44,234 nucleotides of DNA, taken from Escherichia phage vB_EcoS_CEB_EC3a. Within the stretch, counting starts at the first letter, position 1, and each line of letters opens with the position of its first letter. Of this stretch, positions 4,662 to 42,312 are shown in pieces. The notes under the pieces are model-generated. The model was given only the letters and a program-made list of their open reading frames with translations. It did no database searches and was not told the DNA's origin. The position numbers and the translations under genes are program-made. The DNA lies in sequence record NC_047812.1. One strand, given 5' to 3'.

Positions 4662-4739
4662 GCTCTGCTAGCTCAACAGGACAGCAGCAACGACCTTCTA
4701 AGTCGTAGGTTACTGGTTCGAATCCAGTGCGGAGCGCCA
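4662..4739 (+). tRNA. tRNA-Arg (anticodon TCT), CCA encoded
   Basis: Manual cloverleaf: acceptor GCTCTGC/GCGGAGC, anticodon stem ACGAC/GTCGT with loop CTTCTAA, T-arm ACTGG-TTCGAAT-CCAGT, discriminator G + CCA. Confidence 0.8.
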
Positions 4740-32143: not shown

Positions 32144-33065
32144 AGTCTAGTAATTCGCTTGCTTTGTATATTCGCTTTCTTATGCCTGACTTGAAAAAAT
32201 TATCATCATTTGGCATTACCACATCAAGATTGCGATCGTCAGCAACAGCGAGTAAATCAAAATCGTGGCGAGTACAAGCGACGCGTAACTTGTAGTTTCT
32301 AAGCGCATAAGCAACCATTTCCATGTTGTAGCTGGAGTGGCAAACAAGCACACAGCGGTTGCCAGTAGCAATGTGAACGCGATAGCCGTCAATGAGATTA
32401 TCGACCAGATAAGCGTACTCATCATCTTTAAAGGCGCCAATAATAGAAACAGACTGGCGAGTATAATCTTTTGCAGCATAGCTAACATCTCCATCTTCAT
32501 TGATAAACATTACATTGCACATATCATCTGATATGCCGTCACTATAAGCCATAAAGCACGGTACTGCGTGTATTAGTTCGCCTGATTTAGTCCTGCCAAC
32601 ATCAAAACCAAATTCGCTATAGATACCCTCGTATATACTGAGCGGTGTTGATTCTACTCTTTCCGTCCTTTCCATTATCTCAAGGCATCTTTCGTGGTCA
32701 ATCTGCGCGCCCATTTTATAAAGCTTAGTTCTTGATGCTTGCTTGTTTGCCTTAACTATAACCTCAATTGGTGTTAAGTTCAGCCAGTCACCAAGCAAAT
32801 TCACTGAATCGGCGAAGGACGATCCAGTGCACTTCATGACCCATCCTATACCTGAGTCACTTCCGCATTTCGAACAAACTGCCGCGCCATTTCCTTTTTC
32901 ACTGCCTATTTCGTCGGTAAATCTGAATCTGTCAGTGCCAAGGCAGTATGGGCATGGTCCGTGCTTCTTACTTAGGTGTCTATCATTCCAACCAAGTTCC
33001 TTTGCATAAAATAATTTCCACAATCCGGCCATCTTAGGTATAACTTCATTCTTATCGTAATTCAT
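32142..33065 (-). CDS. DNA primase (zinc-ribbon containing)
   Basis: Cys motif CPYC...CSKC near N-terminus; adjacent to helicase region. Confidence 0.6.
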   Translation of the reverse strand: MNYDKNEVIPKMAGLWKLFYAKELGWNDRHLSKKHGPCPYCLGTDRFRFTDEIGSEKGNGAAVCSKCGSDSGIGWVMKCTGSSFADSVNLLGDWLNLTPIEVIVKANKQASRTKLYKMGAQIDHERCLEIMERTERVESTPLSIYEGIYSEFGFDVGRTKSGELIHAVPCFMAYSDGISDDMCNVMFINEDGDVSYAAKDYTRQSVSIIGAFKDDEYAYLVDNLIDGYRVHIATGNRCVLVCHSSYNMEMVAYALRNYKLRVACTRHDFDLLAVADDRNLDVVMPNDDNFFKSGIRKRIYKASELLD

Positions 33066-33541
33066 TTGCTTAACCCGTGATTTTCGTGAAAGTTGTATTT
33101 TCTCTCTGCTTCAATTCTTACTTTATACGCCTGCTCTGGAGTATCGAAGTTCCCAAGGTGTAGCTGCTTACCGTCAACCTTGATGTGAGCCTTAAATTTT
33201 CCGTGATTTAGCTTTGCCACTCCACAATAACCAGTTGTTGATAAAACGCTAAGCTTGCAATTTCTTGAGTTACCTTGATTTGTTGTTACTCTTAGGTTTT
33301 CTATTCTGTTATCTAATTTGTTATGGTTTATATGATCAATGTAGTCGCCATTTTTAAGTTCTCCATTAAACATCTCCCACACAACTCTATGTACATAAGT
33401 CCTAAAGCCATTAACAGACACTTTGTAATAGCCAGATGTAGATAGTGAGTTGCACTCATCGCCAACCTTAACACGTCTTGCAGTGCTAATCTTCCAATGC
33501 AATTTGCCATCTACATAGTAAAAATAATCATGCCAGTTCAT
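33062..33541 (-). CDS. HNH homing endonuclease with AP2-like DNA-binding domain
   Basis: DYIDHINHNKLDNRIENLR HNH motif; GYCGVAK...GKQLHLGNFDT AP2-like segment. Confidence 0.8.
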   Translation of the reverse strand: MNWHDYFYYVDGKLHWKISTARRVKVGDECNSLSTSGYYKVSVNGFRTYVHRVVWEMFNGELKNGDYIDHINHNKLDNRIENLRVTTNQGNSRNCKLSVLSTTGYCGVAKLNHGKFKAHIKVDGKQLHLGNFDTPEQAYKVRIEAERKYNFHENHGLSK

Positions 33542-34168: not shown

Positions 34169-36163
34169 ATGTTGCCTATCGAGAAGCTGGTTGCCAACTT
34201 TGATAAAGAAAGAATTAAACAGATTCAGAAAGATTACCAGTTTGGCGAGATAACCCCTTACGAGTTCCAATGCGTTACATTTGATGCAATTGGGAAGGCT
34301 ATTGGCAAGTATGAGGCTCCATTTATCGCAGACCTCTCGGTATCTGCTGGTAAGACAATCATCCTGGCTATGATTGGTAAGCGCATGGAGCAGCTTGGGC
34401 TTCCTTATATGGTTCTTTCTCGCCAGTCAGAAATTATCAGCCAGAACTCAGAAGAGCTTCGTAATTTCGGCATCCGTAACAGCGTCTATTGCGCTGGCCT
34501 TAACGTTAAATCAGTTTATTACCCAACCATAGTTGCCAGCGAGGGTACGGCTGCTAACGGATTGTTTAAGGGGCTTGGTGACTATGTTCCGGCAGTTATC
34601 GCTATCGATGAATGTCACATGCTTGACACTATGGATATAGTTGAAGCAGAGGAGAACGAAGAAACATTTGAGCAAATGAGCACAAAGAAAGGAGAGATGG
34701 TTTTCAAGGATGGCGTTAACACTGGATTAATCGGTACTGGTCGTTCGCAATACACTCTAATCATTACAGAGATGAAACGACGTTGTCGTGAAAAGTACGG
34801 TCGGGAGCTTCGTATATTCGGCCTTACTGGTAGCCCATATCGTAACAATGACCATATCGTCGTTAGCAATCCAAACATCCGTGGGTTCTGGCGCAAAACA
34901 GTGATCCAGGTCCCAACCAATTACCTTGTTGATTTGGGATTCGTGGTACCTACTGTTTACGGTGAGGTAGGTGATTTGGGTTATGACCTTGCGGAGTTTG
35001 CGCCGGATGGCAGTGATGGTGTGAAAGATTTCAGCAAGAAAGAAATGGATGCTATGCAGGAAAAAATTCATCAAAACCAGTCCATGACTCAAAAGATTAT
35101 GCAGTTCGCAGCCAAGTTTATGGAAACTCGTAACGCAGCACTAGTAACTTGCTCAGGCAAGCGGCATTGCGAGGAAGCAGCCGCGGCGCTTCCTGATGGT
35201 GTAACCTGGGCTATAGTAACTGACTCTACTGGTGAGAAAAAGCGTCGTGAGATTCTTTCTGACGCAGCTGAAGGTAAGTATAAATTCATCTTTCAGATTG
35301 GTTGCCTCACAACCGGCGTGAACGTTCCGACATGGGACACGTCAATAATTCTTCGCAAGGTTGGTAGCATCACGTTACTGATTCAGCTTTTGGGGCGAGG
35401 TATGCGAATTCTTAAGAAGAAGCACAAGGAAATGGGAATGGTTAAGGATGATCACGTGGTGCTGGACTTCGCTGGTACTCTTGATGACATGGCGGAATTG
35501 TACTTTGACCCAATCATAGAGGAAGTGCAGGACCAGAAATTTAAGTATTCACGCAAAGTCGGCGATGAGCCAAGAATATGTCCGGCCTGTAGTTACGAGA
35601 ACTCTCCTTTTGCTCGTCGTTGCAATAACGTAATTGACGGGAAGCGTTGTGAGCATTTTTTTACATTTCGCTTATGTGAAGATATAGAGGACCCGCAGAC
35701 AAAAGTTACTATTAAGAAAGGTTGTGGTGAAAAGAATGATATCGCCGCTAAAAACTGCCGCTGCTGCGGAGAAATGCTTATTGACCCTAACGCAAAATTG
35801 TCTGGAAAGATGTATCGAAAAGGTGATTGGTTGAGAGTTTACGGATTCAGCATTGGATTAACAAAGAACCAAACTGGAATCGTTGCTCGCTATGAAATCA
35901 TGTCGCATAGTGGGGATAGGTTTGTTGCTTACGAAACTTTCTTCCCAGAGAGTGACCATCGAGTTTGCTCTGTAAAATGGAAAGCATTTTGCTCGAGTCA
36001 CATAGAGAACAGGACTGAGGCTTTTAGAATTGGCAGATTGCGTAATGCTAAGATGATTATGACTAATGCTCACCTTTTCCGTGCGCCATTAAGGATTACA
36101 CACCGTAAGAACCAGAAGTCTCAAGATATTATCGCAAACAAATCATTTACTATGGAAGACTGA
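34169..36163 (+). CDS. SF2 DEAD/DEAH-box helicase with C-terminal Cys-rich zinc-ribbon region
   Basis: Walker A SAGKT, Walker B DECH; C-terminal CPAC..C..C and CRCCGE clusters. Confidence 0.8.
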   Translation: MLPIEKLVANFDKERIKQIQKDYQFGEITPYEFQCVTFDAIGKAIGKYEAPFIADLSVSAGKTIILAMIGKRMEQLGLPYMVLSRQSEIISQNSEELRNFGIRNSVYCAGLNVKSVYYPTIVASEGTAANGLFKGLGDYVPAVIAIDECHMLDTMDIVEAEENEETFEQMSTKKGEMVFKDGVNTGLIGTGRSQYTLIITEMKRRCREKYGRELRIFGLTGSPYRNNDHIVVSNPNIRGFWRKTVIQVPTNYLVDLGFVVPTVYGEVGDLGYDLAEFAPDGSDGVKDFSKKEMDAMQEKIHQNQSMTQKIMQFAAKFMETRNAALVTCSGKRHCEEAAAALPDGVTWAIVTDSTGEKKRREILSDAAEGKYKFIFQIGCLTTGVNVPTWDTSIILRKVGSITLLIQLLGRGMRILKKKHKEMGMVKDDHVVLDFAGTLDDMAELYFDPIIEEVQDQKFKYSRKVGDEPRICPACSYENSPFARRCNNVIDGKRCEHFFTFRLCEDIEDPQTKVTIKKGCGEKNDIAAKNCRCCGEMLIDPNAKLSGKMYRKGDWLRVYGFSIGLTKNQTGIVARYEIMSHSGDRFVAYETFFPESDHRVCSVKWKAFCSSHIENRTEAFRIGRLRNAKMIMTNAHLFRAPLRITHRKNQKSQDIIANKSFTMED

Positions 36164-36164
36164 C

Positions 36165-36584
36165 ATGCAAATTACAGACAAAGAAGATTACATTGAGTTT
36201 TACCCAGGCCCGGTTAAGTCGTGTCCGAAAGAGGATGACGAACAAATCTTTTGCTCTGATTGGGTTAAGTATAACTACCCGGAGATGGTATTTTTCCACT
36301 GCGTAAATGAGGGGAAGAAAACCATTGGACAGGCAAGAAAGGACCAGGCTAAAGGGCTCCTTAAAGGCGTGTCAGACTGCATGTTTCTTATTCCCGAGTC
36401 TCTGAGAGGCAAATACCCTTTCGGAGCTATAGAGCTGAAGAGGGCTGGCAAAACTCAGGCTAGCCCAGTCAGTGACGAACAGAAGTCTTTCCTTAAAAGC
36501 GTAAGAGAATCAGGCGGTTTCGCTGGTGTTGCCTACGGGCGCGAGGGTTTTCTTGCGGCATTCAAAGAAATGATTTCAAAATAG
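36165..36584 (+). CDS. VRR-NUC domain nuclease (putative)
   Basis: IELKRAGKTQASPVSDEQKSFL pattern; stop TAG in palindrome. Confidence 0.55.
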   Translation: MQITDKEDYIEFYPGPVKSCPKEDDEQIFCSDWVKYNYPEMVFFHCVNEGKKTIGQARKDQAKGLLKGVSDCMFLIPESLRGKYPFGAIELKRAGKTQASPVSDEQKSFLKSVRESGGFAGVAYGREGFLAAFKEMISK

Positions 36585-37785: not shown

Positions 37786-38916
37786 ATGGCAACTGCAAAA
37801 ATTACCAACGAAGAACTGCGCGAAGAACTGGCAAATGGCATGACCAACAAGGCAATCGCAGAGAAGTACGGAATGAACATTCGCAACGTTGAATTGCGTC
37901 GTAGTAAATTGGCTAAACAAGGTGAGGGGCATGGCCGTGATGTTAGTAACCTAATCCCTCAAGGTTACGCCGTTAAGGGCGTTTCTAGCTTAATTGGTGC
38001 TGATGGTGAGATCAAGCAACAGTGGGTAAAGTCTGACATTGACAAGGAGAAGCAAGAAGAAATGATGCTTCAGGCAATTCAGGCGATGACCGATGAGTTA
38101 CCACGCGAAAAAGCGAAGCCACTCAGTACGTCATCATTTGAGGACACTCTGAGCCTTTACCCTGTATTCGACCTTCACATTGGCGCAATGGCTCACCATG
38201 CTGAATGTGGCGAGAACTACAGCACTGAAATCGCCGAGCGAGTCCTTAATAGTTATTTTGATTACGCCGTTGCAAAGGCACCAAACTCCAAGAAAGCTGT
38301 ATTGCTGATTGGTGGTGACTTCCTTCACTCTGACGGAATGGAGGCGGTAACCCCAACCAGTCGTCATATTCTTGATCAGGATAGTCGATACCACAAATTG
38401 GTTTACGTAGCAGTGAGAGCGACGCGAAGAGCAATTAGTCGGATGCTTGATAAGCACGCTGAGGTTGAGGTTCAGATTATTCCTGGAAACCACGATCTTT
38501 CAGGAATGATTTGGTTGCGTGCGGCAATGGCCGCTTTCTATATGGATGAGCCTCGAGTTAATGTTGATGCGTCACCTGCTGCGCTTCACGTAACGCAGTT
38601 TGGAAAGACGCTACTTGGTTACTGTCATGGACATGAACTCAAAAAGCCTGATACCAGACTATCAACACTGGCTCGTGACCATCGTAAGGCTTTTGGTGAG
38701 TCTGAGTATGTTTACACTCATAGTGGCCATTACCACCATCAAACGATTACAGAGGGTAACTTAGGTATCGATGAGTCTCATGGTCAGCTTGGTTGTAAGG
38801 ATGCGTACAGTGCCAACGGTGGTTATCGCTCTTATCGCCAGGCGTCTGTAATCATCTACAGCCCTAAATTCGGAGAGATTGGTCGATTCACTTGCCGTCC
38901 CGAAATGTTTAGTTAA
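37786..38916 (+). CDS. HTH domain + calcineurin-like metallophosphoesterase
   Basis: N-terminal GMTNKAIAEKYGMNIRNVELRRSKL; phosphoesterase motifs DLHIG, GGDFLHSDG, GNHD, CHGHE, GHYHH. Confidence 0.6.
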   Translation: MATAKITNEELREELANGMTNKAIAEKYGMNIRNVELRRSKLAKQGEGHGRDVSNLIPQGYAVKGVSSLIGADGEIKQQWVKSDIDKEKQEEMMLQAIQAMTDELPREKAKPLSTSSFEDTLSLYPVFDLHIGAMAHHAECGENYSTEIAERVLNSYFDYAVAKAPNSKKAVLLIGGDFLHSDGMEAVTPTSRHILDQDSRYHKLVYVAVRATRRAISRMLDKHAEVEVQIIPGNHDLSGMIWLRAAMAAFYMDEPRVNVDASPAALHVTQFGKTLLGYCHGHELKKPDTRLSTLARDHRKAFGESEYVYTHSGHYHHQTITEGNLGIDESHGQLGCKDAYSANGGYRSYRQASVIIYSPKFGEIGRFTCRPEMFS

Positions 38917-39000: not shown

Positions 39001-39177
39001 ATGACTAAAATGATTTTTTGCACCAAGAACAACTCCAAGACGCTGCCATTTACAGTTAACCAGCCGTACAATGCAGAGTATCAAGGTGACGGATACTACA
39101 AGATTTATGGCGACGATATGACGTGGATTTTAGCGCCGATTGATGGTTCGCTGGTTGAATTTATTATCGCAGACTAG
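39001..39177 (+). CDS. hypothetical small protein (58 aa)
   Basis: ORF with ACGAGGAAA RBS downstream of module, followed by terminator. Confidence 0.5.
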   Translation: MTKMIFCTKNNSKTLPFTVNQPYNAEYQGDGYYKIYGDDMTWILAPIDGSLVEFIIAD

Positions 39178-39203: not shown

Positions 39204-39231
39204 GGGGGGCCTTTTGGCTCCCCTTTTTTAT
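39204..39231 (+). terminator. intrinsic terminator before lysis cassette
   Basis: GGGGGGCC-TTTT-GGCTCCCC imperfect hairpin + T6. Confidence 0.55.
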
Positions 39232-39308
39232 GCTTCTTTTCCGAGCGGTGCTAATGTATCATTCTTTTACTAACTTAAACATTGACAAATACACAAATGG
39301 AGGATCAC

Positions 39309-39524
39309 ATGAGGGAAGTAATCAACGCTGCTACGGCGTCAACTGGAGGGGCTGCGGTAACTGGCGCGGCAACTGGTCAAATGACTATAGCAATAATCAG
39401 CCTTATCGCTCTAATCATTTTTGGTGCGTGGGGAGCTTACTGGAAGTTTAAAGATAGCCAGGCTATTCGGCGAGCGCTTGAGTCTGGCGACCTAAAAACA
39501 GCAATCAATATAAGGAGCAAATAA
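39309..39524 (+). CDS. holin (possibly pinholin)
   Basis: 71 aa, Gly/Ala-rich weak TMD plus strong TMD IAIISLIALIIFGAWGAYW, charged C-terminus; directly upstream of endolysin. Confidence 0.65.
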   Translation: MREVINAATASTGGAAVTGAATGQMTIAIISLIALIIFGAWGAYWKFKDSQAIRRALESGDLKTAINIRSK

Positions 39525-40010
39525 ATGAAGCAAAAGCTGCTAATTAGCGCGGTTACGGCTGCGGCAATATACATCGCAGCGCCGCTTATTGAGCTCGTTG
39601 AGGGTGTGGAGAACAAGCCTTACATGGACATTGCCGGAATCCCTACAGTTTGTTCCGGTATTACTGGTCCTGACGTTGTTTGGGGTAAGACTTACAGCAA
39701 TAGTGAGTGCCGTAACCTGCTGGAGAAACACATCCAGATTCATGCTAAGTATGTTCAGGATGCAGTTACCTACCCAATCGCACCGCAGACAAGGGCAGCG
39801 TTAATCAGCTTTAGCTATAATGTTGGCGGCTCAGCGATGAGGAAGTCTACGGCTGTAAGGTTAATCAACCAGGGTAAAGTGGAGCAAGGTTGTAAGGCTT
39901 TGAGCCTTTGGAATAAAGCTACCGTTAATGGCAAGAAGGTTGTGGTTAAGGGCTTGGTAAACCGCAGGAATGAGGAGATTAAGTTATGCTTAAGCGGATT
40001 GCAGCGTTAG
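39525..40010 (+). CDS. SAR endolysin (T4-lysozyme-like muramidase)
   Basis: N-terminal signal-anchor-release segment SAVTAAAIYIAAPLI; catalytic E...D...T spacing in EGVENKPYMDIAGIPTVCSGIT. Confidence 0.8.
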   Translation: MKQKLLISAVTAAAIYIAAPLIELVEGVENKPYMDIAGIPTVCSGITGPDVVWGKTYSNSECRNLLEKHIQIHAKYVQDAVTYPIAPQTRAALISFSYNVGGSAMRKSTAVRLINQGKVEQGCKALSLWNKATVNGKKVVVKGLVNRRNEEIKLCLSGLQR

Positions 40011-40375
40011 TAATGTGCGTAGCTTTATATGGATGTTCAGCAACATCTGCTCTGACCGGATTAATTGGCAGTAAGCCAGAGATTAGCGCTCAAGCTGGTG
40101 CAGAAAACAATAAGGTTGGTCTTGGTTTAACGAACAGGGTTGACTCAAGTAACTCCAGCGATGCCACAGTTAAGGATTCCAGCGTGGGCTCACTGGATAG
40201 TTCTAGCGGGAAAAAGACTGCTGATAATTCGATTAAGGCCTCTACAATCACTGCCGAAAAGATTGAGATTACCAATAACGACTCATCAGCGCTTCCGTGG
40301 ATTGGAACAGGAGCGATGGGTTTGCTGGTTCTGATTCTCCTTGCCTTAATCTTAAGACGTAAAAAAGCCTCCTAA
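39986..40375 (+). CDS. unimolecular spanin (u-spanin, T1 gp11-like)
   Basis: N-terminal lipoprotein signal with lipobox LYGCS plus C-terminal TMD GAMGLLVLILLALIL and basic tail. Confidence 0.7.
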   Translation: MLKRIAALVMCVALYGCSATSALTGLIGSKPEISAQAGAENNKVGLGLTNRVDSSNSSDATVKDSSVGSLDSSSGKKTADNSIKASTITAEKIEITNNDSSALPWIGTGAMGLLVLILLALILRRKKAS

Positions 40376-40728: not shown

Positions 40729-42312
40729 TTACCCCAGCAGTCTAGGATTAATGTAAACTTTATCACCAATCAGGCACGTGTAGTTTTTCTCATCAAGCAT
40801 TGGCAGCAAGTGATCTTTAATCTTCGTCATTACTCCAGCCTGAGCCTCGAATGGCTTAACCTTACGAGCCGCTTCATACAATGAACGAATGCCAACTACG
40901 CCCTTACCGTTCTTACCTTGCTTGATCAGAATATCAATCAGCTTATTCATCTCGGCATTGTCGCCAGCGTGACCAGCGGCGTTAGCAGATGACAAATAAG
41001 TCTTGCTAAGTTCCTGGAACATAATTACAGCCTCTTGCATGGTTTCGAGTTCAATCTCTCTGGACTTCTGCGGACTCCCGCCATTTGGGTTAAACCAGTT
41101 ACGCACAGTGTGAAGGACCGCTGCAATCCTGATAGCCTGCTTATCAAACTTACCAAGCGCACCGCGAAGCATTGTGTGAGAATACTTACCGCCGTCAGCG
41201 AGGTGAGGCTCCATTTCCTGACGTGCTCGGTTGAGGTACTTCATCGCTGAGTTGCTTACTGTCAGCTTAACATCTTGCTCATTCATTATTTCGTGAACCA
41301 AGCGGAAGTAGTCAGCCTTCAGGCCACCATCAATAGGTTCGTAAGTTGAGTCTCCATTCTCATCAACGAATACACGTTCGCCGAGGAATGACTTCTCGCG
41401 CACAAGAAGGAAACGTTCCGATACACCGATACCACGCGCGCCAGCATTCATGATTGCATTGATTGTTTCATCCTGCGCAATTACAGAGATGCAACCCATA
41501 GCAACGAAACTCATGTTGTTTTCTGCGTTCGCACGCGCGATAGACACGTTACCCGCATCCCATGCTTTCAGTACAAGTTCGCTGTTCGTTTTCTTGGATC
41601 CGTCACCGTAGGTCATGCCAAGCAGCGAGTTCACGCTCGTCGCCTCATCCGAGATGACTGCGAAGTTGCCCTGGCGGTTGTTGATTCGAGCAAGGCCTTC
41701 AGGCGTGGTATCTGATACTGGGAATACGATATCGCACAACTTCTCCAGCTTTTCTTCCAGCTCCTCTTTCTCCTCAAAAAGTGAAGCCATCTCTGACGGG
41801 GATTTTTCCTGCTTCATCTCTTTCGATAATGTAGATAGCTTAGCCATAATCTTTTTGCGCTCACGCTTGCGCACTTCATTAAGTCGCTCAGTCTCAGTAA
41901 TCATTGGAGCAATCGAAAGTGAGTTAATGGCCGACTTACCAGTTGATGGCGGTTGGCTTGTCACGACGTAAAGAGATGTTGGCTGTTGGGTGCCATGATA
42001 CTCGACAGTAAAGCGTCCAAGCATTGCGGCAGAAATACACCCAAGGAAGTGCATATAAGCTGAAGACTCTGGAAACTGAACTGAACGAGCGATGTTAGAT
42101 GACAATTTACCAACAACATCAATATCATTTCCTAGTGAGATTACGGGGTATTTGTCATTTGCAGCATCAATCTCCACTGGTGCTTTCCAGAATGATTGAG
42201 ACTGGCGATAGCCATTGGCATTAATGGCGACTCGCAGTGGCGGGAGGTTGTCTGCGGCAGCAATTGCCATAACCTGTTCAACAGATAGTTTATCTTCGTT
42301 GAAATCAAACAT
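40729..42312 (-). CDS. large conserved hypothetical protein with P-loop-like motif (possibly DUF3987-like ATPase)
   Basis: 527 aa; PPSTGKSA Walker-A-like segment; GGAGAG RBS; has degenerate paralog at 893-1414. Confidence 0.6.
   Translation of the reverse strand: MFDFNEDKLSVEQVMAIAAADNLPPLRVAINANGYRQSQSFWKAPVEIDAANDKYPVISLGNDIDVVGKLSSNIARSVQFPESSAYMHFLGCISAAMLGRFTVEYHGTQQPTSLYVVTSQPPSTGKSAINSLSIAPMITETERLNEVRKRERKKIMAKLSTLSKEMKQEKSPSEMASLFEEKEELEEKLEKLCDIVFPVSDTTPEGLARINNRQGNFAVISDEATSVNSLLGMTYGDGSKKTNSELVLKAWDAGNVSIARANAENNMSFVAMGCISVIAQDETINAIMNAGARGIGVSERFLLVREKSFLGERVFVDENGDSTYEPIDGGLKADYFRLVHEIMNEQDVKLTVSNSAMKYLNRARQEMEPHLADGGKYSHTMLRGALGKFDKQAIRIAAVLHTVRNWFNPNGGSPQKSREIELETMQEAVIMFQELSKTYLSSANAAGHAGDNAEMNKLIDILIKQGKNGKGVVGIRSLYEAARKVKPFEAQAGVMTKIKDHLLPMLDEKNYTCLIGDKVYINPRLLG

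Follow-up and report, generated by a model that had tools for sequence, protein, structure and literature searches.

A conserved helix-turn-helix metallophosphoesterase of the T1-like phage vB_EcoS_CEB_EC3a as a putative DNA-tethered nuclease

The 44,234-nucleotide stretch of DNA analyzed here (the window; Escherichia phage vB_EcoS_CEB_EC3a, sequence record NC_047812.1) contained at 37786..38916 (+) a coding sequence for a protein of 376 aa, in which an N-terminal helix-turn-helix (HTH) precedes a calcineurin-like metallophosphoesterase (MPE) domain. This protein may well be a divalent-metal dependent DNA nuclease of the MPE superfamily, probably using Mn2+ and held on DNA by its HTH. The open reading frame (ORF) starts with ATG, comprises 376 codons and a stop, and is preceded by an AAGGA Shine-Dalgarno sequence; its product is a PHROG 704 protein orthologous to ORF16 of phage T1. 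The initial annotation, made from the sequence alone, had proposed the fusion of an HTH to a calcineurin-like MPE. The ORF and every motif string that it quoted were found in the translation, well beyond what chance would give in view of the full-length PHROG 704 match and the conservation among relatives, and the fusion was upheld by the fold of the structural model, the conservation of the motifs and the HTH matches of relatives. Megablast identified the window as the genome of a T1-like siphophage of the Drexlerviridae, with 87–94% nucleotide identity to vB_EcoS_UALMA_PCEc3, DTL, SU57 and the vB_EcoS-xxxx/Veterinaerplatzvirus phages.

The AlphaFold2 model of the 376-aa protein, computed with an input of 32 homologs, had a mean predicted local distance difference test score (pLDDT) of 79.7 and a predicted template-modelling score (pTM) of 0.69, and revealed from the N- to the C-terminus a three-helix HTH, a β-hairpin, a linker helix and a compact MPE sandwich. 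The catalytic domain (aa 119–376; 38140..38913, +) was an α/β sandwich with the MPE fold, running to the C-terminus and devoid of a capping domain. The five-motif set of the calcineurin-like superfamily (PF00149 clan), namely DxH, GD, GNH[DE], H and GHxH, was complete. Motif I was DLHIG (aa 129–133, with D129 and H131; 38170..38184, +), motif II was GGDFLHSDG, of the GDxxH type (aa 176–184, with G177, D178 and H181; 38311..38337, +), motif III was GNHD (aa 234–237, with N235 and H236; 38485..38496, +), motif IV was CHGHE (aa 280–284, with H281; 38623..38637, +), and motif V was GHYHH (aa 314–318, with G314, H315 and H317; 38725..38739, +).

Conservation was assessed over 140 cluster representatives with about 30–40% identity to the 376-aa protein, and all five motifs were conserved among them. 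D129 and H131 were found in every relative; together with G177, D178, N235, H236, H281, G314 and H317 they made up the positions conserved at 98–100%, followed by H181 and H315 at 95–98%. Because the metal-binding and catalytic residues were retained at 95–100% in proteins with only 30–40% identity, the family appears, on sequence grounds, to be an active enzyme under selection for catalysis and not a degenerate scaffold. The Pfam model Metallophos gave the 376-aa protein 19.9 bits, below its gathering cut-off of 21.5, and matched 21 of 81 relatives at E ≤ 0.01. The sub-threshold score reflects a family too diverged for the model, and membership of the MPE superfamily is settled by the fold and the motifs. 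A family-specific loop, VTPTSRHILDQDSRY (aa 188–202; 38347..38391, +), lies between motifs II and III and follows the pattern TPxSxHxLDxDxR, with T189 at 98%, L196 at 93%, D197 at 97%, D199 at 91% and R201 at 95%. Its conservation equalled that of the catalytic residues, yet its pLDDT was low (58–60). The loop is a candidate substrate-recognition element, for which no counterpart elsewhere was identified.

The N-terminal HTH (aa 8–44; 37807..37917, +) resembled those of LuxR/GerE or of sigma-70 region 4, with helices at aa 8–16, 21–27 and 32–44 modelled at a pLDDT of 73–85; the HTH-like segment GMTNKAIAEKYGMNIRNVELRRSKL corresponds to aa 18–42. For the 376-aa protein alone, the Pfam scores over aa 13–42 were 13.9 bits for GerE (cut-off 23.5) and 12.4 bits for Sigma70_r4_2 (cut-off 25.7), and the GerE, Sigma70_r4_2 and response-regulator matches at aa 9–44 in Pfam and NCBIfam were all sub-threshold. 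The N-termini of the 81 relatives were matched more firmly, by HTH_1 in 24, HTH_8 in 14, Sigma70_r4_2 and GerE in 11 and 6, and HTH_50 in 11 of them, with best E-values of 1.5e-9 for Sigma70_r4_2 and 2.4e-8 for GerE. Precomputed GerE and Sigma70_r4 Pfam matches also existed on N-terminal fragments of relatives, and GerE itself (1fse, E 0.01) was the best PDB sequence for the family profile. An extension ahead of motif I, with a median length of 141 aa, was found in essentially all family members. Used alone as a query, the N-terminal module brought up nothing but short gene fragments, and no other domain arrangement. The HTH assignment is thus well supported, the subtype being putative. As for the domain assignment anticipated by the initial annotation, the MPE fold, its motifs and the HTH helices stood in the model; the 376-aa protein on its own scored below the Pfam thresholds.

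Between the HTH and the catalytic domain, the model placed a family-specific β-hairpin (aa 61–85, with strands at aa 61–70 and 76–85) and a linker helix (aa 87–102), together encoded at 37966..38091 (+). Two hairpin residues, G74 (94%) and W80 (96%), were among the best-conserved positions outside the active site in the 140 relatives, and W80 was invariant in the N-terminal alignment.

A single-sequence search of the PDB with the 376-aa protein gave no match. Structure comparison and profile search pointed to nucleases: the best Foldseek matches (E 2.5e-7) were to DNA-bound Mre11 of M. jannaschii, and a profile restricted to the MPE domain, run against all 177,635 distinct PDB sequences, retrieved Mre11/SbcD of T. 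maritima (E 0.005–0.06), then, more weakly, an entry named ‘Nuclease MPE’ (E 0.095), the sole other row being unrelated (E 1.7). In the profile alignment, DxHLG was paired with DWHLG, and GDFLH with GDLLHS, of T. maritima Mre11 (PDB 2q8u/4o24). The T1 ortholog ORF16 (AAP49983.1, CPTT1_064), which aligned colinearly with the 376-aa protein at 63% identity, had independently been annotated in the T1 record as ‘exonuclease; HHpred 99% to E. coli SbcD 4LTY’. Three methods and the curation of T1 agree, by modest margins, that the nearest relatives are DNA nucleases, with Mre11/SbcD first. Among the three functions that the initial annotation had offered (a DNA-targeted Mre11/SbcD-like enzyme, a protein phosphatase tethered to DNA, or an enzyme degrading immune signals), the DNA-targeted nuclease fits best, Mre11/SbcD being ranked first by all three methods.

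The closest solved structures were S. aureus SbcD (7dog), T. maritima Mre11 (2q8u/3qg5) and M. jannaschii Mre11 (4tug), on which about 185–190 residues superposed at 9–18% identity. The 376-aa protein has in common with them MPE motifs I to V, a motif II of the GDxxH type and the N-H pair of motif III, and differs from them in its N-terminal HTH and β-hairpin. Mre11/SbcD proteins carry a capping domain, whereas the chain of the 376-aa protein ends 59 aa past motif V without one; they also work with a Rad50/SbcC partner, whereas the 376-aa protein has neither partner nor Rad50-binding tail. The window, the DTL and T1 annotations and the neighbours at 160 viral and 71 bacterial loci yielded no gene for a Rad50/SbcC ATPase of the SMC (structural maintenance of chromosomes) type. 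Because the capping domain and the Rad50/SbcC partner are both missing, the protein lies outside the Mre11/SbcD family, and its resemblance is to the working of an Mre11-type nuclease domain.

A precedent for such a simpler, stand-alone layout is ‘Nuclease MPE’ (PDB 6nvo/6nvp), which, like the related ligase-associated PdeM (TIGR04123), is a small MPE protein that has neither a capping domain nor a Rad50 partner. The name given by its depositors makes it a nuclease, and it is taken here to be a Mn2+-dependent endonuclease of single-stranded DNA. Its profile match to the 376-aa protein was weak and centered on motif III, and it differs in having no HTH and another genomic context. Membership of the PdeM family itself was rejected (18.4 bits for TIGR04123, against a cut-off of 150).

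Among phage proteins, A1 of phage T5, a predicted metallophosphatase that acts with the DNA-binding protein A2, is both required and sufficient for digesting the host chromosome (10.64898/2026.04.02.716235). Like the 376-aa protein, A1 has a C-terminal MPE domain without a capping domain, and in both systems a phage MPE is paired with a DNA-binding module. A1 and A2, however, are two polypeptides encoded by pre-early genes, and A1 (556 aa) has an unrelated N-terminal region of 300 aa. Homology to A1 was tested and rejected: hhalign gave a probability of 18.6% over 20 columns, hmmsearch 2.8 bits, and A1 matched PHROG 1745 only; the sole match was an NHDxxxSxWL stretch after motif III. Homology to A2 was likewise tested, and none was found. 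T5 A1/A2 is hence an analogy and not a homolog of the HTH-MPE protein. An annotation as the archaeal PolD small subunit DP1 or eukaryotic polymerase B-subunit was rejected as a transfer artefact, since the OB domain is missing and T1-like phages do not encode a catalytic subunit of the PolD type. Work on Metis and PUA-Cal-HAD was also set aside, its subject being denA of T-even phages, which is different from the HTH-MPE family.

The domain combination had been called unusual in the initial annotation, a description that did not survive comparison: the same architecture is invariant throughout a large, catalogued family (PHROG 704, T1 ORF16, 2047 phage records). The match to PHROG 704, ‘DNA repair exonuclease’, had an E-value of 4.2e-148 and was full length, with aa 4–375 aligned to positions 2–389 of the 390 in the profile. 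PHROG 704 and T1 ORF16 share with the 376-aa protein the same full-length architecture and the same site, after the helicase/VRR-NUC genes and before the lysis cassette, with no substantive difference. The closest relative, at 98.7% identity and already in GenBank, was that of phage vB_EcoS-12397V, and the ‘DNA repair exonuclease’ of Sf12 was 90% identical; other members are named ‘phosphoesterase’ (UniRef) or ‘putative phosphoesterase’ (records of BASEL phages). The name ‘DNA repair exonuclease’ derives from homology and fold prediction alone. The 376-aa protein is an ordinary, already known member of this catalogued and biochemically uncharacterised phage family.

By tblastn, homologs were present in 2047 of 50,697 phage records, near full length in 1739, covering Drexlerviridae, Guernseyvirinae, Sodalis phage SO-1, a Rhodobacter phage of the Casjensviridae, and Vibrio and Flavobacterium phages. 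A HMMER scan of 1.84 billion cluster representatives gave 4715 matches at E ≤ 1e-3 and 1009 at E ≤ 1e-30, with a median length of 392 aa. A profile built from six diverse orthologs again returned mostly T1-like proteins, and a fold search of BFVD returned uncharacterised viral homologs only. Within the Drexlerviridae, the gene was reported in 508 of 522 genomes, bordering the lysis cassette (PMC13164509). At the 71 bacterial loci, family members sat in what appear to be prophages, in Brevundimonas, Phenylobacterium, Paraburkholderia, Brucella/Ochrobactrum, Stutzerimonas, Ralstonia and others, showing that the family is not confined to virulent phages. In some phages, the gene was annotated as two ORFs (PHROGs 20703 and 20762; JK_64P of phage Jk06, BFVD Q45PV2), with N-terminal parts matching aa 1–192 and C-terminal parts matching aa 258–374, which suggests frameshifts, sequencing errors or insertions.

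In the window, the gene order was regulator, superfamily 2 (SF2) helicase, VRR-NUC nuclease, five small ORFs, MPE gene, DUF7244 ORF, terminator, holin, SAR endolysin, spanin and bidirectional terminator, an order shared with T1, DTL and Sf12. The SF2 helicase (34169-36163, +; PHROG 16 ‘DNA helicase’, Pfam Helicase_C) starts the rightward block and is followed by the VRR-NUC nuclease (36165-36584, +; Pfam VRR_NUC), which agrees with the nearby nuclease and helicase genes mentioned in the initial annotation, both being upstream in the same transcription unit. The MPE gene closes this replication/recombination block and is probably co-transcribed with the helicase and VRR-NUC genes. A downstream module of its own, as had also been suggested, was not seen: what follows is only a 58-aa gene for a stand-alone DUF7244/SH3-like protein (39001-39177, +; PF23896, E 1e-29), located before the holin, an intrinsic terminator with an 8-bp stem and a T-run that closes the block (39204-39223, +), and, downstream of the terminator, an ordinary lysis cassette of holin, SAR endolysin and spanin (39282-40375). 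A recent description assigns the stand-alone DUF7244/SH3-like element to the shell of the Drexlerviridae lysis module (PMC13164509).

Among relatives, the MPE gene was followed by polynucleotide kinase/3'-phosphatase (Pnk) at +1 and deoxynucleoside monophosphate (dNMP) kinase at +2 in 28 of 80 close viral loci, as well as in K1ind1 and Yersinia phage vB_YenM_574, and the MPE-Pnk-dNMP kinase order is the commonest arrangement in Drexlerviridae without the SH3 gene (PMC13164509). In phage T1, the Pnk and dNMP kinase genes lie about 35 kb from the MPE gene. A Pfam scan of the pooled neighbours at 80 diverse environmental (IMG/VR) phage loci found no constant partner gene; the neighbours included lysis genes, GNAT acetyltransferases, terminase, portal and nucleotide-metabolism genes, the latter encoding DUF6378, MazG-like dGTP_diPhyd_N, nucleoside deoxyribosyltransferase, dUTPase and dCMP deaminase. 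In about eight of these diverse loci, a GNAT gene closely preceded the MPE gene, and lysis genes flanked the MPE gene in many unrelated lineages. In prophages of many Proteobacteria, the neighbours were the NinG, RusA and YbcO nucleases, antiterminator Q, a MazG-like dATP/dGTP diphosphohydrolase, terminase and lysis genes. Three themes recur in these contexts, namely the processing of DNA junctions and ends, nucleotide supply, and a position at the boundary of early and late genes.

In the mechanism proposed for the 376-aa protein, the DNA substrate, the metal, the polarity of the nuclease and the biological role are all putative, and are read from the observed fold, active site, HTH-type N-terminus, conservation and context. 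The catalytic domain would act as the nuclease domain of Mre11/SbcD does, and the HTH and β-hairpin, standing in for the Rad50 clamp and the capping domain, would hold the enzyme on DNA. The enzyme may process DNA ends or nicked or branched DNA as part of recombination-dependent replication and concatemer maturation, and/or degrade DNA to 5'-dNMPs that would be recycled by dNMP kinase, a salvage role that fits the Pnk and dNMP kinase genes found directly after the MPE gene in many relatives. The DNA nuclease reading is favored by the retention of the HTH throughout the family, by the conserved catalytic residues, by the helicase and VRR-NUC genes in the T1-like block, by the NinG/RusA/YbcO junction nucleases in prophages, and by T5 A1 as a precedent for an MPE enzyme in the breakdown of DNA by a phage. 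Several observations weigh against it. The 376-aa protein alone falls below the Pfam thresholds for both Metallophos and GerE, and it has neither the capping domain nor the partner of the Mre11/SbcD nucleases. DNA binding by the HTH is putative, and a search around the gene for repeats or palindromes as candidate binding sites gave only short pairs at chance level. A search of the window detected neither Pnk nor dNMP kinase, and the salvage link thus does not hold throughout. Prophages carry members of the family as well, and full-text searches of the literature found no functional study of any member, biochemical or genetic.

A narrower form of the nuclease reading, which is doubtful, holds that the HTH-MPE protein is the nuclease with which T1-like phages would degrade DNA, including the host chromosome, to reusable 5'-mononucleotides, and that it would be a single-chain functional analogue of T5 A1 plus A2. 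If so, loss of the gene should raise generalized transduction and allow escape from defences that sense breakdown products such as m6dAMP. In the old genetics of T1, a ‘gene 2.5’ was reportedly needed for host DNA degradation, and its correspondence to ORF16 is a lead only. The occurrence of the family in prophages argues against wholesale destruction of the host genome as its general role.

It is possible, if unlikely, that the substrate is a small molecule. The protein would then be a nucleotide phosphodiesterase or phosphatase acting on cyclic nucleotides, Ap4A, deoxynucleoside di- or triphosphates (dNDP/dNTP) or 2',3'-cyclic nucleoside monophosphates (2',3'-cNMP), with the HTH as a regulatory or protein-interaction module, and would either remodel the nucleotide pool or destroy the messengers of CBASS, Pycsar, Thoeris or type III CRISPR. 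Enzymes of this kind have the same compact domain without a cap and were structurally almost as close as the nucleases, and next to the MPE gene, in diverse phages and in prophages, there are often genes for proteins that act on nucleotides (MazG-like proteins, DUF6378, nucleoside deoxyribosyltransferase, dUTPase, dCMP deaminase, dNMP kinase). The PDB profile search, however, gave nucleases and zero small-molecule phosphodiesterases, and it is hard to see what an enzyme of soluble metabolites would gain from an HTH that thousands of lineages have kept. Nor did the 376-aa protein resemble known means of degrading immune signals: there was no PADLOC match, the NCBIfam anti-phage phosphoesterase DS9_1 scored 13.7 bits against a cut-off of 420, and no known anti-signalling family was matched. 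The order MPE-Pnk-dNMP kinase, seen in 28 of 80 close loci, K1ind1 and the Yersinia phage, suits an end-healing role, in which a 2',3'-cyclic phosphodiesterase or 3'-phosphatase would act with Pnk on broken tRNA or DNA ends and repair what host anticodon nucleases or further nucleases of defence systems have cut, as bacterial Pnkp does with its MPE domain. This role is quite improbable, as the MPE gene stands without adjacent Pnk in the window and in T1, no RNA ligase was seen at the loci examined, the HTH suggests duplex DNA over tRNA, and Pnk of the T4 type has a 3'-phosphatase of its own.

Lambda phosphatase (NinI) belongs to the same superfamily, and the similar, nin-like position of the gene near NinG, RusA and Q in prophages might suggest a Ser/Thr/Tyr protein phosphatase anchored either on DNA itself or on a target bound to it. 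PPP phosphatases are recognized by the signatures GDxVDRG and GNHE; the 376-aa protein has GDFLHSDG and GNHD in their place and no PPP match in Pfam or NCBIfam, making this role extremely improbable. Finally, an HTH of the LuxR/sigma-70 region 4 type would be expected of a sequence-specific transcription regulator, for example of an early-to-late or lysis switch, in which the MPE domain would serve as sensor or effector, and the gene borders the lysis cassette in the 508 of 522 Drexlerviridae (PMC13164509) and adjoins lysis genes in many unrelated phages. That regulation is the main role is nonetheless very unlikely: the full conservation of the catalytic residues implies catalysis as the selected function, no conserved repeats or palindromes were found near the gene, a terminator stands between it and the lysis genes, and T1-like phages already have a Cro/C2-like regulator.

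Three further features of the window were recorded. A gene for an HNH homing endonuclease (33062-33541, −; phrog_99, E 3e-57) is located between the primase gene and that of the Cro/C2-like regulator; relatives have HNH genes at varying positions, which in T1 and Sf12 include the one directly after the MPE gene. A tRNA-Arg gene (anticodon TCT; 4662-4739, +) lies upstream of the terminase genes, as it does in related vB_EcoS phages. An ORF of 111 aa (1079-1414, +) was 65% identical over its first 63 aa to aa 462–524 of the 527-aa DUF3987/‘DNA helicase’ protein encoded at 40729-42312 (−), and both matched phrog_7327; judged by sequence, it is a separately encoded partial paralogue of the C-terminal domain of the 527-aa protein.

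The HTH-MPE gene is a persistent core gene of T1-like phages, and its family spans thousands of lineages, virulent phages and prophages alike. Its interest lies in the function of a core T1-like gene, and in nothing peculiar to the copy of phage vB_EcoS_CEB_EC3a. Knowledge of the substrate, and of the reason why an HTH is used in place of a Rad50 partner, would assign a role to an enzyme that is among the commonest in the replication modules of siphophages, and could explain how T1-like phages, which have no polymerase of their own, process or scavenge DNA.

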